Positions 1,355 to 20,877 of a stretch of DNA of 22,031 nt are shown here, piece by piece. The stretch comes from Candidatus Micrarchaeia archaeon (GTDB taxonomy: Archaea > Micrarchaeota > Micrarchaeia > Anstonellales > J096). The notes beneath the pieces are model-generated. The model saw nothing but the letters and a program-made list of their open reading frames with translations. It did no database searches and was not told the origin of the DNA. The position numbers were made by a program, and so were the translations under genes. The stretch covers positions 1 to 22,031 of the forward strand of contig JBGQMY010000020.1 of the NCBI GenBank assembly GCA_041500865.1, in the 5' to 3' direction. The number at the start of each line of letters is the position of its first letter. Within the stretch, counting starts at the first letter, position 1.

Positions 1355-1912
1355 CTATTCAAACGGCTCTATGTCCTTCATCGTTTTCCAGGCCCTGTCC
1401 TTGTCTGACAATATCGGGTTCGCGACGTTCCAGTCTATCCTGAGGCTGGAGTCGTTCCATATGATGCCATCCTCGGATTCGGGCTTGTAGTCGTTGTCAG
1501 CCTTGTACATGACATAAGAGTTATTCTGCAGCGCCAAAAATCCGTGCGCAAAGCCCCTTGGCACGTAGAGGCATACGCCGTTTTCCTCTGAAAGCCTTAT
1601 GCCCTGCCATTTTGAGAACGTCGGGGAGCTTTTCCTCAGGTCAACAATGACGTCATAAACTTCGCCTTTGATGCAGCGGACGAGCTTTGCCTGCGAAAAT
1701 TCCCCTTTTTGGAAATGAAGGCCCCTAAGAACGCCCTTTTTGGATATTGAAAGGTATTCCTCGTTGAAGAAAGGCTTGACGTTGAACCTTGCCAGTATCT
1801 CCTTTGTGTAGAGCTTGAAGAAGATGCCCCTTTCGTCGTCAAACCTCAACGGCCGTATTATGAACGCGCCCTTCAGCTGAAGCGCCTCTGTCTCCAATTT
1901 GCTGACTATCAT
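1355..1912 (-). CDS. rfbC: NDP-4-keto-6-deoxyhexose 3,5-epimerase (RmlC family)
   Basis: DERGIF, KGVLRGLHFQ, QAKLVRC, DLRKSSPTF, PRGFAHGF, ILSDKD motifs. Confidence 0.93.
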   Translation of the reverse strand: MIVSKLETEALQLKGAFIIRPLRFDDERGIFFKLYTKEILARFNVKPFFNEEYLSISKKGVLRGLHFQKGEFSQAKLVRCIKGEVYDVIVDLRKSSPTFSKWQGIRLSEENGVCLYVPRGFAHGFLALQNNSYVMYKADNDYKPESEDGIIWNDSSLRIDWNVANPILSDKDRAWKTMKDIEPFE

Positions 1913-2766
1913 GCAATCGCCCCTTTCAGCATCTTGAACTGCTGTTCAAGGGAAGCTGTTTTTCCTGCAATCTTTTCAGCTTTTGACATGTCCACTTTCA
2001 GGAATTCAGGGACCGCGAGCTTCCTGTCCTTTATTGAGAATGGTTCTATTGTGCTGGCGCTGAAGCCAAAGCTCTTGGCCAGCCTCAGCCCAAACTCGTG
2101 CCTTGAGACCAGCTCCGAACCGACCGTATTGAATGTGCCGCTGGCGCCCTTGTCCAGCAGTGCCATTATCATCCTTGCCAGTTCCCCCGAATAGATAGGC
2201 TGCGAAAACTGGTCATCTGCCAGCTGCACCGGATTTGAGGCTGTTGCCCCCTTTATCCTGAGGAAGATGTTGGTTCCCTTTTCATCAATGCCGTATACGC
2301 CTTCTGTCCTTGCCATTATGTAGTTTTTGGAAATGCACCTTATCCTCTCCTCTGCCTGGAGCTTTGTGACAGAATAATAGTTTTTCGGGTATAATGGGGA
2401 TTCCTCGGAATAGGTCTCGCCCCTCTTCCCCTCATAGACCCAGTCCGTGCTTACATGCACGTATTTGAACCTGTGCTTTTCCTGCATCAGGGCTATCCTT
2501 TCAGGCAGGAGCGTGTTTACGGCGTATGAAACCGCCTTTTCCTCTTCCATCCTGTCTGTGGAAAGGGGCGGCTTCACGGCGTTTATCACAACGCCTGGAT
2601 TTTCCCTTGATATGAGGCTCTCCAAAGCCGCAAAATCCATTACGTCAATGTTATATGAGCTGTTTTTCGAGCTTTTTGACACGGTCTTGACGCTGTGGCC
2701 TTTACCAAGCTCCAAGGCCAGGTGGTGGCCGACCACGCCTGAACCCCCCAAAACCAATATGTCCAT
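1909..2766 (-). CDS. RmlD-like NDP-4-keto sugar reductase (SDR)
   Basis: Likely start MDILVLGGSGVVG (2766); HVSTDWVYEG, YxxxK (YSVTK), DDQFSQP; ATGA overlap with rfbC. Confidence 0.85.
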   Translation of the reverse strand: MDILVLGGSGVVGHHLALELGKGHSVKTVSKSSKNSSYNIDVMDFAALESLISRENPGVVINAVKPPLSTDRMEEEKAVSYAVNTLLPERIALMQEKHRFKYVHVSTDWVYEGKRGETYSEESPLYPKNYYSVTKLQAEERIRCISKNYIMARTEGVYGIDEKGTNIFLRIKGATASNPVQLADDQFSQPIYSGELARMIMALLDKGASGTFNTVGSELVSRHEFGLRLAKSFGFSASTIEPFSIKDRKLAVPEFLKVDMSKAEKIAGKTASLEQQFKMLKGAIA

Positions 2767-2770
2767 GTTT

Positions 2771-3790
2771 TCACTTCCCATAAAACAGATCCTTGTCAAT
2801 AACGCCCTGTTTCACAAGGGCCTTGAGGAATTCCAGCCTTGTGAACGTGCCGCCCTCAAACTGCTCCTTTGTCAGATTATACTTTTTGAAGTCGCCAACC
2901 AGTTCCGTTATGCCTCCGTCAAGGCTGACAGTCGGCTTATCAAAAAATTCCGAAACCTTGGAGAAATCCAGCTTATAGGACCGCTCGTCAGGCGTCTTTT
3001 CCTTGTTTATCTGTAGTTTTGCTCCGGTTATTCCGCTTACCCTCTCTCCTATGTCCTTTACCTGGACATTGAGCTCCTCAAAACCGATATTGTAAAGGCC
3101 GAAAATGCCGTCCTCAAGGAACGTGCCGGTTATTTTGGCGTAATCCTTGACATGCAGGATGGGCCTCCATGGAGTCCCGTCTGAAAGTATCTTCACTGCA
3201 TCATAAAGGAACGCGCCTGCAGAAAGGTTGTTGACAACAAGGTCAAGCCTGAGCAGCGGCGATGAGCCGAACATCGTGGCATACCTCATTATGCTGGCCT
3301 TGAACTTCCCGTTCTGTTCCTTTTTCAAAAACTCTTCAGACTCCTTTTTTGAAACTGCGTATGCCGTAAGCGGCGCGGCCTCGGTTGTCTCCGTTGCCGT
3401 CTTTCCCTCAGGGGGCCTTCCGTAAACTGATGCTGAGGAAGCGTAAACAAGGTGCCCGATGCCGAGCTCTTTCGCAATTCTCACAAGGCTTTTTGTGGAA
3501 TTGAAGTTTATGTCCATTGTCAGGCCTGCAGAGAGGTCGCCGAGCGGGTCGTTTGAAAGCGCGGATAGGTGGACAATCTTCTCTATGTTGTGCTTTTTCA
3601 GGTCGTCTGCCGACACTTTCCTTATGTCCTTCATTATCTGGACGTCCGGAAGATACTCCCTAAGGCCGAAAAACGACGCATTGACGAAGTACCCGGAATC
3701 GTAGCCAACAGTGAAATGCCCCCTCTTCCTGAGCTCATTTACAAGGATGCATCCGTTGTATCCAAGATTTCCGGTTATGAAGATATTCAT
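2771..3790 (-). CDS. NAD-dependent nucleotide-sugar epimerase/dehydratase (extended SDR)
   Basis: TGNLGYNG Rossmann motif, HLSALSNDP, ASSASVYG, YAVSK, SDGTPWRPILHVKD. Confidence 0.88.
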   Translation of the reverse strand: MNIFITGNLGYNGCILVNELRKRGHFTVGYDSGYFVNASFFGLREYLPDVQIMKDIRKVSADDLKKHNIEKIVHLSALSNDPLGDLSAGLTMDINFNSTKSLVRIAKELGIGHLVYASSASVYGRPPEGKTATETTEAAPLTAYAVSKKESEEFLKKEQNGKFKASIMRYATMFGSSPLLRLDLVVNNLSAGAFLYDAVKILSDGTPWRPILHVKDYAKITGTFLEDGIFGLYNIGFEELNVQVKDIGERVSGITGAKLQINKEKTPDERSYKLDFSKVSEFFDKPTVSLDGGITELVGDFKKYNLTKEQFEGGTFTRLEFLKALVKQGVIDKDLFYGK

Positions 3791-3823
3791 GCAGCCACCA
3801 AATTATCCATTGCCATTTGCTGT

Positions 3824-4615
3824 TCACCATTTTTTCCATGGCGCCTTGCCCGAGGCCCATATCTCATTGAGCTTCATGTAGTCACGATATGCATCCATGG
3901 GCTCCCAGAAGCCGTCGTGGATATAATAGCCGAGCTTGCCGTCCTTTGCCAAGTTTGTGAGCAGCGGGAATTCCATCATGTCCTCTTCCTTTATGCCCAT
4001 CCTGCCCATGTACTCAAACAGCTTTTTCGAGAAAACCATGAAGCCTATGTTGATATAGTCGTTTGACAGGGGCTTTTCCACGAAATCAGTCACCTTTTTG
4101 TCGTCAAACCTAACAACGCCGAAACGCGACAGGGGCCTGTATATTGAAATCACGCCAATGCAGCCGTTTGCAAGGGCTTTTTTGTATGCGCTTTCAAGCG
4201 CAGGGATGTTGACGTCGGCCAGGTTGTCGCCGTATGCCACTATGAATGAATCCTCGGATATCGTGCCTTTCATCTGGTATAGCCTGCTTGCGGTCCCGTT
4301 CTCAAGGCCCGTGTTCCTTATCCTGATTTCCCACTGCTCCGGATTTCCGTCAAACGCCACTTCGCCGTCCGCCGTGTTTACTGTCAGCCCGTTTGAGCTG
4401 TGCCTGTGGTAATCAGCCCAATAGTCGACAACCTGCTCGTGCTTGTAGCCGCTTGCGATTGCAAACTTGTTTACCCCGAAACATGAAAGGTATTTCATTA
4501 TGTGCCACATGATGGGCATTTCGCCTATGTTGACAAGCGGCTTGGGCGTTGTTTCGGTTACAGGCATCAGCCTCGTTCCCTTTCCGCCTGCGAATATGAC
4601 GGCTGTTGATACCAT
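3824..4615 (-). CDS. rfbF: Glucose-1-phosphate cytidylyltransferase-like nucleotidyltransferase
   Basis: AGGKGTRL, PKPLV, PIMWHIMK, GYK, YGDNLADVNI, SRFGVV, HDGFWEPMD and C-terminal GKAPWKKW, typical of RfbF. Confidence 0.8.
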   Translation of the reverse strand: MVSTAVIFAGGKGTRLMPVTETTPKPLVNIGEMPIMWHIMKYLSCFGVNKFAIASGYKHEQVVDYWADYHRHSSNGLTVNTADGEVAFDGNPEQWEIRIRNTGLENGTASRLYQMKGTISEDSFIVAYGDNLADVNIPALESAYKKALANGCIGVISIYRPLSRFGVVRFDDKKVTDFVEKPLSNDYINIGFMVFSKKLFEYMGRMGIKEEDMMEFPLLTNLAKDGKLGYYIHDGFWEPMDAYRDYMKLNEIWASGKAPWKKW

Positions 4616-12062: not shown

Positions 12063-12482
12063 ATGGTAAATGAACTCGTTTCGTCATTGCTTTTCGTCAT
12101 CGGCCTGGTGCTGGTCGGCATGTCTTTTGGCAGCAAGAAGGGCCTGCTGAAGGGAATGCTATGCATCTTGGCGGGCAGCATCGCGACAATAGCGATAAAG
12201 GCCCTTTTTTGGGAGCCCCGGCCGTGCGAAGGCCTTTCATTCTGCCCCGGCGATTCCGGCATAGTGAGCGGCCATGCGCTCGTGTCTATGATGTTCGCGC
12301 TCGCATACTACAACAAGAAGGAGTTCATATTCTTCCTGTTCCTGGCTTTGGCAGTAAGCCTGAGCAGGATATGGTTTGGGATACACGACATTGCGGAGGT
12401 CGGCAGGTCCATAGGCATTGCAGTGCTATTGAACTACGCGATAGGTGTTGCTTTCAATGGGGGAAATCATAAGAAAGGCTAG
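12063..12482 (+). CDS. PAP2-family membrane lipid phosphatase
   Basis: K-x6-RP (KALFWEPRP), SGH, SR-x5-H (SRIWFGIH), hydrophobic. Confidence 0.82.
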   Translation: MVNELVSSLLFVIGLVLVGMSFGSKKGLLKGMLCILAGSIATIAIKALFWEPRPCEGLSFCPGDSGIVSGHALVSMMFALAYYNKKEFIFFLFLALAVSLSRIWFGIHDIAEVGRSIGIAVLLNYAIGVAFNGGNHKKG

Positions 12483-13014
12483 CCACATACTGTTCGGGCT
12501 GATGGTGGCATACATAGCGTTCCGATACGGCCAGAATGCATTCTACGCCAGCCAGATAACGGTCATACTCGCGGTGCTTGCGTACAACTGGGCCGGCGTC
12601 CATGCCGGGTCAAGCCGCTTCAGGGGGCTGTTCCGCGCAATAAACGGCGTGCTTGAAAGGGACGACATAGCGATGGCCGGCGAGGCTGCCGTGCTCTTCT
12701 CTGCGTCCATAATGCTAGCCTACTGGGTTTTCGGGAAGGAAAGCGCAATCGCCGCAAGCATAGTGTGGGCCATAGGGGACGGCGTATGCTCGCTGGTGGG
12801 CATGGCGCTGCACAGGAAGGGCAAGAGCCTGGAGGGCATGGCGGCGTTCATCGTGTTCTCTTTCATCGGCCTTGCCCTTCTGTACCCGCACAAGGCCTTG
12901 GGGATGGCAATAGTCGTTGCAGGCTCTGCCATAATGGAGTATTTTAGCGGCAACGTCAATGACAACATAACGGTTCCGCTGGCCGCAGGGCTCCTCTCGT
13001 CGGTGTTCCTATAG
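12457..13014 (+). CDS. CTP-dependent polyprenol/diacylglycerol kinase-like membrane protein (SEC59/DGK1/VTE5 family)
   Basis: RKASH, GDGVCSLVG, GKSLEG, DNITVPL motifs; multi-TM; likely start MGEIIRK. Confidence 0.8.
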   Translation: MGEIIRKASHILFGLMVAYIAFRYGQNAFYASQITVILAVLAYNWAGVHAGSSRFRGLFRAINGVLERDDIAMAGEAAVLFSASIMLAYWVFGKESAIAASIVWAIGDGVCSLVGMALHRKGKSLEGMAAFIVFSFIGLALLYPHKALGMAIVVAGSAIMEYFSGNVNDNITVPLAAGLLSSVFL

Positions 13015-13043
13015 CGGTTTAAATACGGGCCGCTTAGGCAAGA

Positions 13044-13112
13044 TTTTTAAAATATTTGGCTAAAAAGGAGTTTGCCTTTATCATAATGATAAACGAAAAC
13101 ATCAATGGAGGT
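13044..13112 (+). promoter_or_regulatory. Thermosome promoter (TATA) and Shine-Dalgarno
   Basis: TTTTTAAAATA at ~13044-13054; GGAGGT at 13107-13112, 8 nt before ATG 13121. Confidence 0.55.
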
Positions 13113-13120
13113 AATTGGAT

Positions 13121-14758
13121 ATGGCAGGAAAAATAAGCAATGAGCCGATGGCTGAAGGCACGCAGAGGATACTTGGAAGGGACGCAATGAGGCTTAACAT
13201 AGCGATAGGCTATGCCATGGCGCAGATAATAAAGACCACGCTGGGGCCAAAGGGCATGGACAAGATGCTGGTCAGCGACCTTGGCGACATCATAATAACG
13301 AACGACGGCGCGACGATACTGGAGGAGATGAACGTTGAGCACCCGACCGCAAAGCTCATGGTGGAGATAGCGAAAACGCAGGACAAGGAGGTCGGCGACG
13401 GGACCACGACAAGCGTGGTCATAGCGGGCAACCTGCTCAAGAACGCGGGGTCGCTGCTTGACAGGAGCATACACCCGACGACGATAATCAAGGGATACGA
13501 GCTGGCAGAGGTCAAGGCAAATGAGATATTTGACAAGATATCCGAAACTGTTACGGAAAAGGATGAAGCGATACTGAAAAAGATAGCGCTTGTTTCCATG
13601 GGCTCAAAAGGCATCGGAAGCGATGCTGAGAAAGCCGCAATAGCGGACATGGTGGTTAAGGCAGTGACGCAGATAAGCGAAAGGCGCGAAGGCACAAACT
13701 ACATTGACCTCGATTTGATAAAAATAGAGAAAAAGGCAGGCGGCGAGGTTTTGGACACCGCGCTGATAAACGGAATCATAATAGACAAGGAGATAGTGCA
13801 CTCCGGCATGGCGAAGAGGATGGAGAACGCGAAAATCGCGCTCATAGACGCCGCGCTGGAAATCGAGAAAACGGAAACGGACGCGAAAATAGAGATAACG
13901 AGCCCGGACCAGATGGAGGCATTCCTGAAGCAGGAGGAGAACACGCTTAGGGGAATGGTTGACAAGATAAAGGCTTCAGGGGCAACGGCAGTCTTTGTCC
14001 AAAAAGGGATAGATGACGTTGCACAGCATTATCTTGCAAAGAACGGGATAATCGCAGTTAGGCGCGTGAAGAAAAGCGACATGGAGAAGCTGGGAAGGGC
14101 GACTGGCGCGACAGTCGTGTCAACAATAGACGGCCTTTCGGCAAAAGAGCTGGGGCTGGCCGGAGTCATAGAAGAAAGGAAGATTGGCGGCGAGGCAATG
14201 GTTTTCGTTGAAAAGTGCAAGGACCCAAAGAGCGTCAGCATATTTGTAAGGGGCGGGACTGAGCATGTTGTCAGCGAGGTGGAAAGGGCAATAAAGGACT
14301 CGCTTGGCTCTGTTTCATCCGCGCTGGAGGACGGAAAGTACGTCACAGGGGGCGGAAGCGTTGAGGTGGAATTGGCAAAGGGCCTGAGGGAGTATGCCGC
14401 GGGCATAGGCGGAAGGGAGCAGCTTGCCATAGAGGCGTTTGCAGAGTCGCTTGAGGCAATACCCGTATCTCTTGCTGAAAACGGCGGCATGGACTCCATA
14501 GACACGCTTGTTGAGCTGAAGTCCAAGCATGCGAAGGCAGAAGGAAGGGACTTTGGCGTTGACGTGCTTCACGGGAAGGTTGAGGACATGAAGAAGCTTG
14601 GCGTGCTTGAGCCTGTCAAGGTCGTGAGGCTGGCCATCTCTTCGGCAACTGAAACAGCGAGGCTCATACTTAGGATAGACGACATAATATCCGCAAGGGG
14701 CAAGTCCGGCGGCGGCCAAGGCGGCATGCCGCCTGGCGGGATGGGGGACATGGAGTAA
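13121..14758 (+). CDS. ths: Thermosome subunit (group II chaperonin)
   Basis: TLGPKGMDKML, TNDGATIL, GDGTTT, LILRIDDII, GGM-rich C-terminal tail. Confidence 0.97.
   Translation: MAGKISNEPMAEGTQRILGRDAMRLNIAIGYAMAQIIKTTLGPKGMDKMLVSDLGDIIITNDGATILEEMNVEHPTAKLMVEIAKTQDKEVGDGTTTSVVIAGNLLKNAGSLLDRSIHPTTIIKGYELAEVKANEIFDKISETVTEKDEAILKKIALVSMGSKGIGSDAEKAAIADMVVKAVTQISERREGTNYIDLDLIKIEKKAGGEVLDTALINGIIIDKEIVHSGMAKRMENAKIALIDAALEIEKTETDAKIEITSPDQMEAFLKQEENTLRGMVDKIKASGATAVFVQKGIDDVAQHYLAKNGIIAVRRVKKSDMEKLGRATGATVVSTIDGLSAKELGLAGVIEERKIGGEAMVFVEKCKDPKSVSIFVRGGTEHVVSEVERAIKDSLGSVSSALEDGKYVTGGGSVEVELAKGLREYAAGIGGREQLAIEAFAESLEAIPVSLAENGGMDSIDTLVELKSKHAKAEGRDFGVDVLHGKVEDMKKLGVLEPVKVVRLAISSATETARLILRIDDIISARGKSGGGQGGMPPGGMGDME
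14679..14754 (+). repeat. 76 bp direct repeat copy 1 (3' end of the thermosome gene; attL-like)
   Basis: acgacataatatccgcaaggggcaagtcc...gggggacatgga, identical to 16613-16688. Confidence 0.95.
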
Positions 14759-14759
14759 T

Positions 14760-14795
14760 GGGCTTGCTCCAAGCCCTAATTTTTTATTAGTTTTT
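14760..14795 (+). terminator. Hairpin plus T-rich tract after the thermosome gene
   Basis: GGGCTTG-ctc-CAAGCCC followed by TAATTTTTTATTAGTTTTT. Confidence 0.6.
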
Positions 14796-14854
14796 GCATT
14801 TTGCCAATAACCAAGACATACCATTAAAAAACTTTTTTATACACAATATTACTC

Positions 14855-16621
14855 ATGACGAACGCTTCCTTGAAAAAAACGCAGGCATGGCACAAGCCTG
14901 AACCAGACGACACTACCCCAAGAAGACAATTCAGCTTGTTTGGGAAACAGGTAAGGGGAAGGTTTGGCTTTCCGTCTGGCGTTATCGCCACCAACTCTGA
15001 CACTGCCAGGTGGATGCTGAACAATGTGCCACAACTTGGCTTTTATGTCGGAAAAAGCACGACTATCGAGCCAAAGGTTGGCAATCCTGAGGATATCTTT
15101 CTTTTGGTGACGCAAAATTCAGGCTGGAATGCTGTCGGCTATGCAAATCCTGGGCTTGAGGAAATGATAAAGGAGTTCCGCGAACTAGGATCATCTGTTC
15201 CAAACGACGTCTTCCTGATGCCGCAGATTGGAGAAAGCAACGAAGAAAGATTCCAGCACTGTGCTGCAGAGTTTGATAAGCTGGGGGATATTATAGGCGG
15301 GATGGAATTGAATGTCTCATGCCCTCATGCAGAAAAAGGGGGCGTACTCATAGGAAGCGACCCAAAACTAGTTTATTCAAATGTCTCTGCAGTGAGAAAA
15401 GTCACAAAAAAGCCATTAATCGTAAAAGTGAATGCCGGCGTTATAAGAATTATAGAGGTGGTAAACGCTGCTATTGATGCAGGCGCAGACGGGATTTCTG
15501 CAATAAATACTTTGGGCGGGCCAAACCCTGAATTAAGCAACCAGTTTGGAGGCCTTTCTGGCCCAGAGATATTCCCTATAGCATATCGCACTATAAAAAA
15601 ATTAAGGGATGCTGTCAAAGTCCCGATGATAGTGATGGGCGGCATAGATGGAGCAAGTAGTATAAATTGCTTGGACAAGATTGATAATAACTTCTTTTAT
15701 GCGATAGGAACATCACTGGCGCAATTGGATTCTGAAGAGATAAGAACATATTTCCATAATCTTGAATTGGATCTGAAGAACGGCACAGATCTTGCAAAGC
15801 GGATGACTTTGGATAAAGAAATAAGGCAGTACAGGCCTTTTATAATTAAGGATATTGCAGAGATCAGCGAAACTTTGCGGTTGCTCAGGTTCTATGAGAA
15901 TTTGGATGCCAAGCCTGGCCAGTATGTCCATCTGAAAGTTGACAACAGGCACGCAAAGCCATTCTCTGTTGCCGATGACAGATTTGGCCTTGAGTTATTG
16001 ATACGAAAAGTCAGGTTAAAGGAAGATGGTGAAAAGTTTGGTGAGACTACTTCAAAGGTTTTTGAGCTGAAGAAAAATAATGTTGTAAGGGTAAGGGGAC
16101 CGTATGGAAATGGGTTTGGTTTTCCAGAAAAAGACATGGTAATCTATGTCGGAGCTGGCTGCGGCATAGCCCCGATTCATCATGCTGCAACGCATCACAA
16201 CGGGAAAAGGGTTTTTGTGATTGGAGCTAAGACTGCGGACGAGCTTGTTTACCATGACAAACTTGCGGAGATGGGCGAATTATTTATCTCGACAGATGAC
16301 GGAACAAGGGGCCATAATGGCCTTATTTCAGGCCTTTTAGAGAAAGTTCTTGAGACTGGGCAATATGAGGGCGCTTATTTCTTTAATTGCGGTCCGGAGA
16401 TTGCGATAAAAAAAGCTGATGCAATAGAAAGAAGGCACACTCAACCCGGAAGAATATACCATCTTGTTGAAAGGATGACAAGCTGCAGCGAAGGTATTTG
16501 CGGAAAATGTTCGATACCGAATGGGAAAAGGGCATGTGTTGACGGCCCTGTTTTCAATGCTGCCGAATTCAGGCCTGGCAGATATAAGCGAGATAAAACA
16601 GGAAAGAGGATAACGACATAA
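14855..16621 (+). CDS. pyrD: Fused dihydroorotate dehydrogenase 1B catalytic subunit + electron-transfer subunit (PyrD-PyrK)
   Basis: N-half: GKSTT, NAVGYANPG, ELNVSCPH, AINTL, GGLSG, MGGI. C-half: PGQY, KPFSV, RGPYGNGF, GAGCGIAP, TDDG, CGP, C-x4-C-x2-C...CVDGPVF [2Fe-2S] motif. Confidence 0.88.
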   Translation: MTNASLKKTQAWHKPEPDDTTPRRQFSLFGKQVRGRFGFPSGVIATNSDTARWMLNNVPQLGFYVGKSTTIEPKVGNPEDIFLLVTQNSGWNAVGYANPGLEEMIKEFRELGSSVPNDVFLMPQIGESNEERFQHCAAEFDKLGDIIGGMELNVSCPHAEKGGVLIGSDPKLVYSNVSAVRKVTKKPLIVKVNAGVIRIIEVVNAAIDAGADGISAINTLGGPNPELSNQFGGLSGPEIFPIAYRTIKKLRDAVKVPMIVMGGIDGASSINCLDKIDNNFFYAIGTSLAQLDSEEIRTYFHNLELDLKNGTDLAKRMTLDKEIRQYRPFIIKDIAEISETLRLLRFYENLDAKPGQYVHLKVDNRHAKPFSVADDRFGLELLIRKVRLKEDGEKFGETTSKVFELKKNNVVRVRGPYGNGFGFPEKDMVIYVGAGCGIAPIHHAATHHNGKRVFVIGAKTADELVYHDKLAEMGELFISTDDGTRGHNGLISGLLEKVLETGQYEGAYFFNCGPEIAIKKADAIERRHTQPGRIYHLVERMTSCSEGICGKCSIPNGKRACVDGPVFNAAEFRPGRYKRDKTGKRITT

Positions 16622-16688
16622 TATCCGCAAGGGGCAAGTCCGGCGGCGGCCAAGGCGGCATGCCGCCTGGCGGGATGGGGGACATGGA
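16613..16688 (+). repeat. 76 bp direct repeat copy 2 (displaced thermosome 3' fragment; attR-like)
   Basis: Identical to 14679-14754. Continues ATG GAA TAG (copy 1: ATG GAG TAA), then CCCTTAATTTTTCATTTTT. Confidence 0.95.
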
Positions 16689-16767
16689 ATAGGCGCGCCC
16701 GCCCCTTAATTTTTCATTTTTCCGTCTTGGTGCTAAATATAAAAAGACGATTGCCCAAAAGTAGGGC

Positions 16768-18789
16768 ATGGTTGAAGCCCAGAGAAAGGCCGCATTGCCG
16801 GAATCGGAAAGACAGGCAAAACTGCCGTCAGTTTCCGATGCCGCGCAGGCAGCGCAGCTTGACACGATAAACAAAAACCTGCTCCATATGGTGAATGAGA
16901 CGTTCAAGACGCAGACGGCGCTAACTGGGGCGATGGCCGACATACCCCTCTGGAACATGATGCTCAAGGACCTGGCGGGCTTCAGGCTGTTTACGGGCTT
17001 TGCCGCAGGCCCGAAGGAGTACAACAGGCTGGCGAAAGTGGGCGAGGAGATTGAAAAAAGGCAGGGGAAGTTCGCAAACAGCGCGCTCGGCCTGCACAAG
17101 CACATATGCGACATTAAGGCCGGCAAGGAACCGGCTGACGGATTCAAGATTGCGGCAAAGGCCCAGAGGATGCTTGAGGACTACAACAGGTACATGGAAG
17201 GCCTGATAGGCCTTAGGGAGATGATTGCGGCATATAAGATAGAGGGCAGAACCAAATGGGCGGTTGCGACGATAGACGGCGCCATGACGGTCGGCATGTT
17301 CTTCGGCCTGGGCGCCATCGCCAGCTCTACAGGAAAGGCGATTGCAAAGGAAGGGATAAAGGAAGGGCTCAGCCTTACCGCAAAGGCGATGGGCCAGGGC
17401 GCAAAGGCCGCGCTGACCACGCGGATGCTTGTGATAAACGGAGCGATGACTATTGCATTCACTGGCATGGAGGTTTTCAATGGTTTCCAGCTTTCCAAAT
17501 CCATGAAGGACTTTGAGGCAAGCCCGCAGCAGGGCATAGCGTCAACGCGCGCCATGCTTGACAAGATGGAAAGCAAGCTGGCAGGAAACAAAAATGCGTC
17601 CGAGATACGCAAGGTTGCGGATGCTGAGCGCATTGAGCTGAACCTGATGGAGGCGCAGGCAAGGGAGCCTGGCTACAAGGTTGACGCTTGGAGGATTGCT
17701 AAGACCTGCGGCCTGATGTTCGGCACGTTCCTGCTTTTTGAAACAGGGCTCGGGACATCAAGAATCGTGAATGCGGAGATAGGCGGAAGTGCCGGAGCCG
17801 CACTTGCGGGAAGAGACACAAGCAGGACAAAAGGCGGCAAGGCGGAAGGGCTGGCAGTGGCGTCTGGGGAAGAGTTTGCAAAAGGAATAGAGACGTTGGA
17901 AGGGTTAAAGACGGCAATAAATAGGATGGGGCTGGATGCGTCAGCGCAGGAAAACGTCCTGAAGAATATCAACGACATTACGTATAAAGGCGGAAAAATG
18001 CCTTCCATGGAAGAGCTTGTGGAACGCGGGTATTTGGTAAAAGACAAAAAGCCGACGCCTGAGGAACAGTGGGAAAAATCCATGGAGTTCCTTGCTGACA
18101 GGGAAAAGAGGATGAAAATCCTCAGGAAGGAGATATCCGCGGAATTTTCCAATATCGGCATGCCGGAAAAGCTGGCCAACACATATGCAGGCATCCTGGT
18201 CAAGCTGATAGACATATCTGAAAGGAGCGGATATACCGAATACGGCCATGACACAAGGACAGCGGCATACGTGGCAAGGATGCTTGAGCACATGGACAAC
18301 ATAACGGCAAGGGACAAGGCAGTCATAAGGCTTGCAGCGCTTATGCATGACATAGGCAAGGCAGGCGTCAGAAACCAGCTTCTCAGGAAGCCGGGGCCGC
18401 TTGAGGCTGCAGAAAGGACAGAGATGGACAAGCATGCAGAATACTCATACCAGATGCTGAAAGGGATTTTCAAAGACATCGGCGGGATAAGCGATGCTGA
18501 CGCCGAAGCCATAGCCGAGCTGGCAAGGGACCACCACGAGAGCTTCTGCGGCTTCAGGAAGGTCGGCAACGAATACATACCCACAAGGCTTTCGGGGGAA
18601 GAGATACCCATCGGCGCCAGGCTGCTCGCGCTTGCCGACAATTACGATGCAATGCTGAGCCCAAGATCCTACCGTGAAGGCCTCCTTACGCAGGAAGAGG
18701 TCATATTCGAGATAAAAAAGAAAAAGGCTGAGTTTGACCCTTTATTCTTTGACATATTCATGAAAAAAGTCGTGCTTGGGCAGAAATGA
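16768..18789 (+). CDS. Membrane-associated protein with a C-terminal HD-GYP-like phosphohydrolase domain
   Basis: GHDTRTA, AALMHDIGK, LLRKPGPL, HHE, GEEIPIGARLLALADNYDAMLSPRSYR; Gly/Ala-rich hydrophobic N-terminal segments. Confidence 0.85.
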   Translation: MVEAQRKAALPESERQAKLPSVSDAAQAAQLDTINKNLLHMVNETFKTQTALTGAMADIPLWNMMLKDLAGFRLFTGFAAGPKEYNRLAKVGEEIEKRQGKFANSALGLHKHICDIKAGKEPADGFKIAAKAQRMLEDYNRYMEGLIGLREMIAAYKIEGRTKWAVATIDGAMTVGMFFGLGAIASSTGKAIAKEGIKEGLSLTAKAMGQGAKAALTTRMLVINGAMTIAFTGMEVFNGFQLSKSMKDFEASPQQGIASTRAMLDKMESKLAGNKNASEIRKVADAERIELNLMEAQAREPGYKVDAWRIAKTCGLMFGTFLLFETGLGTSRIVNAEIGGSAGAALAGRDTSRTKGGKAEGLAVASGEEFAKGIETLEGLKTAINRMGLDASAQENVLKNINDITYKGGKMPSMEELVERGYLVKDKKPTPEEQWEKSMEFLADREKRMKILRKEISAEFSNIGMPEKLANTYAGILVKLIDISERSGYTEYGHDTRTAAYVARMLEHMDNITARDKAVIRLAALMHDIGKAGVRNQLLRKPGPLEAAERTEMDKHAEYSYQMLKGIFKDIGGISDADAEAIAELARDHHESFCGFRKVGNEYIPTRLSGEEIPIGARLLALADNYDAMLSPRSYREGLLTQEEVIFEIKKKKAEFDPLFFDIFMKKVVLGQK

Positions 18790-18792
18790 AGA

Positions 18793-19350
18793 TCAGTCTC
18801 TTTCAATAGAGGAATAGGTGATGCTTGCCAGCATAAAGCGGCGGTCACTTTCTCCGTATCTCGAGCTCACTTCGCCCACGAGCGCGGAAAGGAACTCTGC
18901 TACGTCCTGGCGATGGTCTGCTATGCAGTTCGTAATCGTAAGCATCGCCTCTGAATATTCCCTGATGTCCCCTCCGCTGAGTATTATCTTCTTGAGCGGC
19001 TCAATGGCGTTCCTGAACAGCGGGTTGAACGGCGGTTCGGAAACAGTCTCCTTCATTGCTTTGAGCAACAGAATCCTCAGTTCCGGGTCTTTCTCCTTTT
19101 GCAGGACGTCCAGCAAAGGCGAAAAGGCTTGTGCGGACTTCAGCTCTGCCAGCTTCTTTGCCCCATTTATCCTTGTTTCCCTTGTTACGGAGTGAATGTC
19201 TATAAGCGCTTCGTGAAGTTCTGCGATACCCTGCCGCTTCCCGAGATATTGCAGGCGCTGGCTTCTCTCCCGCGCAGCCCTTTCGGTCGGCGCCTCCGGC
19301 CTTGTTACCGGAGCAGTATCAGTGCCCCCTCTTGTTGCAGTCTTGGACAT
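18793..19350 (-). CDS. HEAT-repeat-like helical protein
   Basis: TRINGAKKLAELKSAQAFSPLLDVLQKEKDPELRILLLKAM resembles a HEAT/PBS-lyase repeat; TATA box ~25 nt upstream. Confidence 0.6.
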   Translation of the reverse strand: MSKTATRGGTDTAPVTRPEAPTERAARERSQRLQYLGKRQGIAELHEALIDIHSVTRETRINGAKKLAELKSAQAFSPLLDVLQKEKDPELRILLLKAMKETVSEPPFNPLFRNAIEPLKKIILSGGDIREYSEAMLTITNCIADHRQDVAEFLSALVGEVSSRYGESDRRFMLASITYSSIERD

Positions 19351-19419
19351 ATGGTATAATTGTGGAAGTTTGGGTATAAAAACCCTTTTGTTGCTTTTTA
19401 AACGCCCGTCGGCCTTTTA

Positions 19420-19953
19420 TCAATGCCCCTTATCCGCCAGCTCCATGATTACGCGGTCCCTGAACTCGCCATAGTGGCAGTAATAGCTCTTTAGCCTGCA
19501 AACATCCCTGAAGCCAACGCTTTCGTAGAGCTTTCTGGCAGGCTCGTTGCCGTCCACATACTCTATCATCATTTTGTGCGGGAAAAAGGATGCCCTGCCT
19601 TCTTTTATGGCCATCAGCAGCAAACGCCTGCCAAGGCCCTTGCCTCTGAACTCTTTTGAGACTGAAAGCCCGAAATCAACGTTATGCTCGTACGGCTGCA
19701 GGATACCCTTCCTTGCTTCGCAGCTGCCGGCTATGCTGCCTTTGCTAAAAGCAAGGACATAGAGCTTTTTTCCCTCATCCAGGGCCTTTGCCGTCTTCTT
19801 GAGCCATTCCTCCTCTTCGGCAATGGTGATTTCCTTCTGGGACATTATCATGGCCTTTTCTGCTATTATCGGGTTGATGAACTCCAGAAAAGCTGGCGCG
19901 CCTATCTCCGCAAGCCTGCTGCCCTGCCTCACAACCTCGATGGAAACGTCCAT
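19420..19953 (-). CDS. GNAT family N-acetyltransferase
   Basis: Motif A VSKEFRGKGLGRRLL; GNEPARKLYESVGF. Confidence 0.9.
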   Translation of the reverse strand: MDVSIEVVRQGSRLAEIGAPAFLEFINPIIAEKAMIMSQKEITIAEEEEWLKKTAKALDEGKKLYVLAFSKGSIAGSCEARKGILQPYEHNVDFGLSVSKEFRGKGLGRRLLLMAIKEGRASFFPHKMMIEYVDGNEPARKLYESVGFRDVCRLKSYYCHYGEFRDRVIMELADKGH

Positions 19954-20004: not shown

Positions 20005-20877
20005 TCAGAACAGCACTTCCTCAATGCCTTCTGACGCGCAAAGCTCCGAGACGCTCTTCCTTTGCGCGGCATTGAACGCCTTTTTCTCCATTGCAACATA
20101 GCTGGCTTTGCCTTCCATGTTCTTGGATATCGCCTGCCTGAACATGCCGGAATCAAGGCAGGAAAGCGAATGCGATGCAAGCATGTGGCCAACTGCGCAT
20201 TCCGAATTGAGCGAGTATTCTGTCATTGAGGGCATGTAATGGCCAAAGCCTATGCCGAAAAATGCGCCATATTTTTTGTTGGAGCGAAGCGCGTCCATTA
20301 CGGCATCTGCGACAACGGAACACGCCTTAAGGTCATTCCATTCCTTTTCGGACGAGCCGACTTCCACAAACGTGCAAGGCACGTCAACAGTGGGCCCGTG
20401 ATGGTCTGCCTCGTAGCAGACCTCAAACCCAAGGCCTGCCTTCTTGTTCAGCTCCGTGGCATTCAGCAGGAAATTTTTCATGAATGAGGCGTTTGCGAAG
20501 CTAAGCGTGCTTGGCGAGCCCCCGAAATCAGCCTTGTTGCACCAGTTCCCGGACGTGTGGGTCGTCAGGCACGGCTTGCCTGTCTCGGAGCGGTGCGGGC
20601 TCAATACGATGGCCATCTCGGCGTCTTTTGGGGGAAGAATGTCCAGCACGGTATCTGTCAGCATGTCAACAAGCGTGAAGCCGTTCCATTCCCATACTTG
20701 CCCAGAGCTGCCCTTCTTGTCAAGGTCAATGATTTGGTCCGCCAGGCTTTTGCCCACAAGCGTGAAGCCATTCCATTCCCAGAGGGAGCTGGACGTCTCA
20801 AAGAATTCGGTTTCAATAAGGTGCCTGGCTATGTTGTAGCTTGCCGGTTGTTTTGACGTAAAGAGGATATACCTCAT
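20005..20877 (-). CDS. dtdA: D-aminoacyl-tRNA deacylase (archaeal DTD2/GEK1 type)
   Basis: LSPHRS, LTTHTSGN, YEADHHGPT, FVEVGSSEKEW, GIGFGHY, GHM. Confidence 0.88.
   Translation of the reverse strand: MRYILFTSKQPASYNIARHLIETEFFETSSSLWEWNGFTLVGKSLADQIIDLDKKGSSGQVWEWNGFTLVDMLTDTVLDILPPKDAEMAIVLSPHRSETGKPCLTTHTSGNWCNKADFGGSPSTLSFANASFMKNFLLNATELNKKAGLGFEVCYEADHHGPTVDVPCTFVEVGSSEKEWNDLKACSVVADAVMDALRSNKKYGAFFGIGFGHYMPSMTEYSLNSECAVGHMLASHSLSCLDSGMFRQAISKNMEGKASYVAMEKKAFNAAQRKSVSELCASEGIEEVLF
20669..20781 (-). repeat. Intragenic in-frame tandem duplication in dtdA (87 bp period)
   Basis: 26 bp cores at 20669-20694 and 20756-20781 match 25/26; both encode WEWNGFTLV. Confidence 0.85.

Follow-up and report, generated by a model that had tools for sequence, protein, structure and literature searches.

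A foreign dihydroorotate dehydrogenase-like gene between two copies of a thermosome gene end in a micrarchaeal genome: a probable scar of integrase-free recombination

Results

The thermosome gene and its duplicated 3' end

We analysed a window of 22,031 nucleotides (positions 1–22,031 of the forward strand of contig JBGQMY010000020.1) from the Candidatus Micrarchaeia archaeon assembly GCA_041500865.1, in which a single metabolic gene, here called the cargo, lies between two copies of the 3' end of a thermosome gene. The source genome (G000) is metagenome-assembled and comprises 1.04 Mb in 36 contigs, with a completeness of 92% and a GC content of 52%. The thermosome (group II chaperonin) gene occupies positions 13115..14758 of the plus strand (PF00118, E 2.9e-177; likely start, ATG 13121); its open reading frame (ORF) is intact and has a GC content of 53.4%. 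A search of the source genome for the thermosome found a single full copy plus an orphan tail. The live last 25 thermosome codons (DDIISARGKSGGGQGGMPPGGMGDM; 14679..14754, plus strand; copy 1) recur downstream on the same strand, where an orphan thermosome tail with a relic GAA TAG, non-coding in this position, occupies 16613..16692 (copy 2; six-frame match E 9.8e-10, query residues 522–547).

A repeat search showed that 14679–14757 and 16613–16691 differ by one mismatch in 79 nt at a spacing of 1934 nt, the first 76 nt being exact. An exact 76-mer cannot occur by chance in 22 kb, and these two are the only copies of the tail in the G000 genome. The direct repeat reaches 82 nt with one indel, because AGGATA at 14672–14677 matches AGGATA at 16607–16612 once G14678 is skipped, and BLAST aligned 14672–14788 with 16607–16718 at 89% identity. 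The two copies end in GAG TAA (14753–14758) and GAA TAG (16687–16692), respectively, and a CC..TAATTTTT tract follows each. An earlier note, made from the sequence alone, had described an identical 76-bp repeat with a period of 1934 bp, a synonymous divergence of the copies at these last codons and related terminator-like tracts behind them; all three features were borne out.

The copies were compared with those in a genus-level set of five contigs, consisting of G000, the genomes G001 and G002, and the metagenome contigs L036 and L037. Positions 1360–1469 of L036, the nearest relative, align with 16606–16714 of the window at 89% identity, that is, the thermosome tail and terminator of L036 match copy 2. 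The homology of L036 to copy 1 ends at 14757, in the stop codon, and does not extend into the terminator of copy 1 (term1; 14755..14795, plus strand), which consists of the third base of the last codon, TAA, a hairpin GGGCTTG-CTC-CAAGCCC (14760–14776) and a T-run. The terminator of copy 2 (term2; 16693..16730, plus strand), now located 3' of the cargo, aligns with the thermosome terminator of L036. Since the L036 terminator aligns with copy 2 and not with copy 1, the downstream copy and its terminator are, on this alignment, the resident original gene end, and the live stop codon and term1 would be an imported gene end that arrived with the cargo. The claim of the earlier note that two alleles of one gene end are present was supported.

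The sliding identity of the thermosome gene against L036, G002, G001 and L037 was also calculated. Within a patch at 14072–14251, G000 is nearer to G002 (0.84–0.86) than to its nearest relative L036 (0.71–0.77), which may point to a mosaic formed by homologous exchange within this gene. Apart from this patch no donor tract was found in the thermosome gene by this comparison, and in particular no G001-like 3' part.

The captured gene

The cargo (14855..16621, plus strand) is the sole ORF between the two repeat copies. Its product of 588 residues is predicted to be a fusion of a class-1B-type dihydroorotate dehydrogenase-like catalytic domain and a PyrK-like FAD/2Fe-2S domain: the class 1B domain set is present, with a match to PF01180 (E 4.8e-32) in addition to matches to PF00970 and PF10418. 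The scores of the NCBIfam models for PyrD and PyrK were below their cut-offs (NF005574, 176 bits vs 269; NF000796, 173 bits vs 224). The GC content is 44.4% in the cargo ORF and 30% in the spacer at 14759–14854, compared to 53.4% in the thermosome gene. The AT-richer interior proposed in the earlier note thus stands, although the difference is less extreme than its spot counts had implied.

The closest homologues of the cargo are 68% identical. We collected 64 loci of cargo homologues from species-representative genomes, with flanks of up to 3.5 kb; most belong to Gemmatimonadota and Spirochaetes, and two belong to Woesearchaeota. In these two, the homologue sits 3' of pyrE-like and pyrF genes, forming pyrE-pyrF-pyrDK clusters. 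No orthologue of the cargo was found in two genus-mates. The lower GC content (44% vs 52% in the genome), the distance to the best relative, the absence of an orthologue from the genus-mates and the distribution of the family elsewhere all mark the cargo, on sequence criteria, as a foreign, horizontally captured gene. In addition, no match to orotidine 5'-monophosphate decarboxylase (PF00215) or to OTCace_N (PF02729) was found in the 92%-complete G000 genome. The lack of the decarboxylase and of domains of the aspartate transcarbamylase type suggests that the captured dehydrogenase is not embedded in a pyrimidine pathway here, and the cargo is predicted to be a lone dihydroorotate dehydrogenase-like enzyme.

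The 5' end of the cargo differs from that of its relatives. The region 14796..14935 (plus strand) comprises an AT-rich spacer and an N-terminal extension of 23–24 codons without a counterpart in the family. The motif GKxVRG starts at residue 5–6 in 48 of the 49 homologues that bear it, and at residue 29 in the cargo. A lineage diverged by 5–9% from the G000 cargo, found in a public sequencing run (X4), reads ATA in place of the ATG at 14855, and the flank upstream of its cargo is again terminator-like. The start of the cargo is uncertain because of the motif offset and of this substitution, and translation may really begin at an in-frame TTG located farther downstream. The stretch 14855–14935 varies fast in the X4 lineage, with the change of ATG to ATA, a 3-nt deletion and a +1/−1 indel pair within 8 nt. 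Positions 14755–14940 had no other match in the G000 genome or in any fetched locus. The comparison with homologues suggests that the native start of the cargo was probably removed at the original capture.

The right junction

At the right junction (16607..16612, plus strand), the letters AGGATA are the native Arg-Ile codons of the cargo and at the same time equal the thermosome Arg-Ile codons at 14672–14677. The counterpart of G14678 is missing here. The missing G shifts the frame, so that the cargo ends ..KRITT at a TAA stop codon (16619–16621) within the repeat. All ten aligned homologues end ..TG-[KE]-[KR]-[IV]-x-I or similarly, and the cargo ends ..TGKRITT. Of the 119 available homologues 53 carry the motif, and 30 of these 53 end five to six residues past TG; the cargo ends five residues past it. 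These C-termini lead us to conclude that AGGATA belongs to the cargo's own codons and is thus a 6-nt microhomology at an illegitimate junction, not part of an attachment (att) site carried by the insert. The left junction lies within homology (76 nt, followed by the alternative stop codons and terminators), and the right junction lies at a microhomology of 6 nt, which falls in the 3–10-bp class. Among shorter proteins searched with residues 430–588, no fragment more than 66% identical to the cargo, such as a near-identical fragment with a native stop, was found.

Both copies could instead be derived from the recipient, if unrelated foreign DNA had been ligated into a staggered break of ~80–115 nt at the gene end and a true target-site duplication had resulted. 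This would account for the identity of the 76 nt. In that case, however, the insert must by luck have supplied a base preserving the Glu codon and a stop codon, for which we estimate a chance of roughly 2%. The stop codon and terminator of copy 1 can be aligned with those of copy 2, which is what an allele, but not random DNA, would show, and an identity dating from the birth of the insert would have decayed, since the junction is common to a diverged lineage. We regard a duplication of this origin as very improbable.

Support for the assembled structure

As G000 is derived from a metagenome, we considered whether two strains had been merged via the 76-mer, or whether an empty chromosome and a free 1934-bp circle had been wrongly phased into one sequence. 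A repeat of 76 nt corresponds to k − 1 for k = 77. This idea of a k = 77 artefact was rejected, as many pairs of contig ends in the G000 assembly overlap by exactly 141 nt; the words of the assembly graph thus exceeded the repeat in length and covered it together with at least 65 nt of flanking sequence.

Further evidence came from k = 31 contigs, not raw reads, of four public runs; contigs of this kind break at repeat edges. The contigs of run X1 cover 12400–14754 (thermosome), 14725–16422 (into the cargo) and 16659–19400 (into the HD gene described below), leaving 16423–16658 uncovered, and the depth over the cargo is 7.35 compared to 9.28 and 9.61 over the flanks, a ratio of 0.78. Both observations would suit an artefact, as would another genome of the order, G128, in which two thermosome-tail alleles lie at contig ends. 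In run X2, which originates from a separate study, a contig covers 14912–16642 with 0 differences and ends 30 nt inside the orphan tail, and the depths over the cargo (5.4) and the flanks (5.3–6.4) are equal. A contig of the X4 lineage (16341–16671) also crosses the junction between cargo and tail and reaches 59 nt into the tail, with insertions of six letters behind 16608 and of three behind 16640. Two recorded contigs, one of them of 71,964 bp, encode exactly the cargo protein. No joint of 14754 to 16689 was reported in the k = 31 contigs of the four runs. We conclude that the structure is not an assembly artefact; a merger of strains or wrong phasing has, in our estimation, hardly any probability left. 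Run X2 also contained one joint of 14695 to 17989, in which one side measures 21 nt and 12 letters are filler, and which probably comes from another organism; neither this joint nor the gap in X1, which proves nothing, was used as evidence.

Variation behind the thermosome gene

The cargo and the orphan tail are followed by a gene for an HD-domain protein of 673 residues (16768..18789, plus strand). This gene is lineage-specific, being present in L036 and without an orthologue found in G001 or G002. Genes for a HEAT-repeat protein (18793–19350), a GNAT acetyltransferase (19420–19953) and a D-aminoacyl-tRNA deacylase (20005–20877), all on the minus strand, come next and served as synteny anchors. 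The five genus-level contigs have five different neighbours 3' of the thermosome gene. The order in G000 is thermosome, cargo, orphan tail, HD, HEAT, GNAT and deacylase. In L036 (87.6% nucleotide identity in the thermosome), the thermosome gene is followed by an insert of 1.19 kb and then by HD, HEAT, GNAT and deacylase. In G002, which belongs to the same genus (about 80–82% nucleotide identity), the GNAT (60% amino acid identity) and deacylase (79%) genes follow directly. The thermosome gene of G001, also of the same genus, is followed by a convergent gene of 418 codons, and that of the metagenome contig L037 by rmlC and rmlB-like genes. No second thermosome tail was found in L036, G002, G001 or L037. 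The rml genes also differ in order within the genus: rmlC, rmlD, rmlB and rmlA-like genes lie at 1355–4615 of the window, ~9–12 kb upstream of the thermosome gene, and rml genes lie directly behind the thermosome gene in L037 (1386–3823).

The tail of L036 carries no insert and differs from that of G000 at 5 of the 76 positions. The insert of L036 (1470–2657) lies between the thermosome terminator and the HD promoter, ~25 nt beyond the insertion in G000, and consists of a single Hypoth_Ymh gene with a GC content of about 31%; an 11-nt exact direct repeat (1479–1489 and 2640–2650) and two terminator-like tracts flank it. The Ymh protein had no match among viral contigs. L036 thus provides a site without the G000 insert together with a different foreign gene. 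Taken together, these gene orders support the view that the slot behind the thermosome gene is a variable local hotspot.

The gene order of L036 also bears on which block is the newcomer. The thermosome gene, term1 and the cargo might have been the residents, and the orphan tail, term2 and the HD and HEAT genes might have entered as a linear fragment from a genus-mate by classical homology-facilitated illegitimate recombination (HFIR), with the homology anchor on the GNAT/deacylase side and an illegitimate join to the 3' end of the cargo, the orphan tail being the ragged end of the fragment. Such an exchange needs no circle, obeys the rule of insertion with deletion given for HFIR in PMC3240628, and can use the same microhomology junction; the haplotype of thermosome, term2 and HD exists in L036. 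On the other hand, L036 shares the HD-HEAT-GNAT block, and the 3' third of the G000 thermosome gene is closest to L036 (0.88–0.92), suggesting that the HD block is ancestral and the cargo the newcomer. The identity of all 76 positions poses the same problem here as it does for the entry of the cargo. We therefore hold this opposite direction of exchange to be unlikely.

Tests for a landing pad and a recombinase

The geometry of an intact gene end, a cargo and an orphan gene end, with no recombinase in the window, was as claimed in the earlier note, which took the thermosome tail for a landing pad of small cargo cassettes, integrated by a trans-acting recombinase or by homology-driven integration of a circle. 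Under the first option, the tail would be an att site into which a recombinase encoded elsewhere, or one provided by a helper element, inserts small circular cassettes, and the two copies would be attL and attR. The replacement gene end resembles attL/attR geometry, the direct repeats flank the element and the target gene remains intact, as in integrative elements. The variable slot of the genus, with the second foreign single-gene insert of 31% GC in L036, also agrees with a landing pad.

Several observations argue against such a site-specific system. None of the 21 ORFs scanned in the window belongs to a recombinase family, and the element holds only the one metabolic ORF. A genome-wide search for PF00589 (Phage_integrase), which did not extend to serine recombinases or further families, gave no match in the 92%-complete G000 genome, compared to matches in all 14 control genomes; the result suggests that not even a recombinase of the Xer type is encoded. 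The right junction lies in the last codons of the cargo, at a 6-nt match with a 1-nt slip. Different cargos do not reuse an att core, since the L036 insert lies behind the terminator with a different, 11-nt repeat and the other relatives have no second tail. Neither a thermosome gene nor an HD gene was found beside the cargo homologues at any of the 64 loci. No tRNA gene was found in the window, and Rfam returned nothing relevant in the region. Two inverted repeats were found, both weak and far from the ends of the element. A transposon or casposon was rejected on account of the absence of terminal inverted repeats and of a transposase or casposase, and because the repeat of 76–82 nt far exceeds a transposon target duplication.

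The full thermosome protein was used for a six-frame search of all 176 genomes of the order, 169 of which gave a match, and the 18 further genomes with multiple matches were all followed up. Most of the additional matches are either paralogues or genes divided between contig ends. An extra thermosome 3' end is present in three genomes (G000, G158 and G128), leaving 173 of 176 without one, and a cargo lies between the copies in G000 only. As assembled, contig C9 of G158 (3479–3928 of the locus) contains, without cargo, a perfect tandem duplication of 225 nt that takes in the final ~146 nt of the thermosome gene and 79 nt beyond it. In G128, the ends of contigs C15 and C52 have 107 nt of the thermosome 3' region in common and then run into different Gly-rich tails and downstream DNA, pointing to two alleles of the tail or to a strain fork. 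A decayed thermosome pseudogene with four stops and 43% identity lies ~10 kb from the intact gene in a further genome (G116, C2:119989–121100). A degenerate DDIISARG pattern detected three loci in viral contigs, none of them thermosome-related, and nothing on the thermosome as an integration site in archaea was found in the literature searched.

A comparison of G000 with itself revealed a second island of the same geometry. A 43-nt exact direct repeat (31654–31696 and 35754–35796 of contig C1; 2655–6797 of locus L105) represents the beginning of the Nop5 gene, namely its start codon and first 13 codons. It flanks an island that is 4.1 kb long, has a GC content of 41% and carries ankyrin-repeat, PIN and Eco57I-type restriction-modification genes and no integrase. 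In G002 the flanks of the island are contiguous and ~75 nt map to both copies, representing the empty site. The recurrence of this geometry at a different conserved gene, there at the 5' end, speaks for homology-driven events in general and against a system specific to the thermosome. We presume from these results that a dedicated landing pad served by a recombinase in trans is decidedly unlikely: of the landing-pad idea, the hotspot stands, with its five neighbours in five contigs and the insert of L036, and the site-specific system, for which no shared crossover point was found, does not. Elsewhere in the genome, contig C36 (2413 nt) has identical first and last 141 nt, and is thus circular or a tandem of a 2272-nt unit; its product is a group II intron reverse transcriptase/maturase (RVT_N, RVT_1 and GIIM).

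Discussion

Proposed origin of the insert

We propose, with a probability of about 0.6, that the 1934-bp segment is a recombination scar, formed through homology at one end and microhomology at the other without a dedicated recombinase, and not a cassette with its own integration machinery. The donor would have been a member of the same genus in which a captured pyrD-pyrK fusion already lay directly behind the thermosome gene, and the recipient would have possessed the thermosome gene, its own terminator and then the HD gene. On the left side, the incoming fragment may have been joined through homology in the thermosome 3' end, so that the live gene now ends with the last-codon base, stop codon and terminator of the donor. 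On the right side, the end of the cargo ORF would have been joined illegitimately to the thermosome Arg-Ile-Asp-Asp codons at AGGATA, possibly together with ACGA, with the loss of one G. Such a join would have kept the tail and terminator of the recipient as an orphan behind the cargo, and the orphan tail would now supply the last two codons, the stop codon and the terminator of the cargo.

Two routes could have led to this structure. In the first, the fragment would have been recircularised by end-joining at the microhomology and then integrated via one crossover of the Campbell type within the 76 nt of homology. In the second, a break at the Arg-Ile-Asp-Asp codons would have been repaired by copying the donor and closed via the microhomology. 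The two routes give the same product and are indistinguishable here. The first corresponds to the homology-driven integration of a circle, the other option of the earlier note, which fits the experimental outcomes in PMC3240628. The repeat, the positions of the junctions, the absence of an integrase, the resident status of the downstream terminator and the variable neighbours are shown by the data; we infer the donor, the order of events and a later gene conversion between the 76-nt copies from the arrangement of the sequences.

Several points weigh against this proposal. The identity of all 76 positions is unexpected, because the junction is common to a lineage diverged by 5–9% and the L036 tail differs at 5 of 76 positions. 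A neutral orphan should have drifted, which calls for an additional event, either gene conversion or a more recent exchange; of these, conversion between the two copies would account for the identity most simply. The donor haplotype of thermosome, term1 and cargo with its native stop was not found, and term1 bears a weak resemblance to its counterparts in G001 and in the X4 lineage, over short AT-rich tracts. Insertion by classical HFIR is accompanied by deletion and not by duplication (PMC3240628), so that the proposal depends on a variant with a circle or with templated repair. The public records are contigs only, none of which alone covers all 76 nt of the repeat plus unique sequence on both sides, and the gap in X1 over 16423–16658 means that the read evidence there is limited. 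The genome-wide recombinase search was limited to PF00589, and 8% of the genome is missing.

If the recombination scar is accepted, it bears on how archaea with small genomes (DPANN-type) acquire genes. They gain genes horizontally, and the physical route is seldom visible; the present locus keeps both junctions. A foreign gene could then be fixed behind an essential, conserved gene by means of homology and a microhomology of a few bases, with the essential gene remaining intact. The Nop5 island and the different foreign gene in the slot of the sister lineage suggest a general route rather than a single accident. A more tentative and rather unlikely extension is that these archaea possess portable homology handles in the ends of highly conserved housekeeping genes, exemplified by the 3' end of the thermosome gene and the 5' end of Nop5; if so, promoter-bearing packets would carry a piece of a gene end and re-enter related genomes at the same place without an integrase. 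For annotation, orphan copies of gene ends beside genes of lower GC content may serve as markers of recent integrase-free acquisition.

Comparison with known systems

The original works on HFIR are reportedly those of de Vries and Wackernagel and of Prudhomme and colleagues, both from 2002. In HFIR, one end is joined via homology and the other at microhomologies of 3–10 bp, usually with a deletion, and duplications of the homologous segment (109–950 bp) were obtained in 56 of 60 clones by single crossover of recircularised molecules (PMC3240628). The thermosome locus resembles these outcomes in the homology to a conserved resident gene at one end, the microhomology at the other, the lack of a dedicated recombinase and the duplication around the insert. 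Those are laboratory events in bacteria, and the present case differs in being natural, fixed in an archaeal genome of 1.04 Mb and inherited by diverged lineages. It also differs from classical HFIR, which deletes recipient DNA: no such deletion was found here, and the tail was duplicated, matching the single-crossover outcome.

The displacement of C-termini in Rhs and contact-dependent inhibition (CDI) systems was reportedly described by Jackson and colleagues in 2009. HFIR has been proposed for the orphan arrays behind conserved sequences of Rhs and of type VI secretion systems (T6SS) (PMC5361080). The effector-immunity loci of Rhs, CDI and T6SS share with the thermosome locus a conserved upstream homology anchor, an old gene end pushed downstream as an orphan and the lack of an integrase (PMC5361080), and the T6SS/Rhs orphan arrays are its closest natural parallel. 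They differ in that a toxic C-terminus and an immunity gene are exchanged there under diversifying selection, whereas here the end of the protein stays the same and an unrelated metabolic gene has been added.

Integrative elements that bring a replacement gene end occur at the 3' ends of protein-coding genes, namely phage 21 and e14 at icd and the Staphylococcus aureus pathogenicity islands at groEL. As in these elements, a replacement end keeps the target intact, and the insert lies between direct repeats of the gene end. In contrast, the icd and groEL elements use a tyrosine integrase and one reused att core, and at the thermosome locus no integrase was found, the junction lies in the coding end of the cargo and the L036 insert is located elsewhere. 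Flexible genomic islands between conserved core genes, of the replacement and additive types, are a further parallel, in that close relatives differ in content at one position and exchange it via flanking homology. The inserts described here differ from them in consisting of single genes, one of which has an explicit junction scar showing its entry. The process is thus of a known kind, and the locus is a new, well-preserved archaeal example of integrase-free gene capture.

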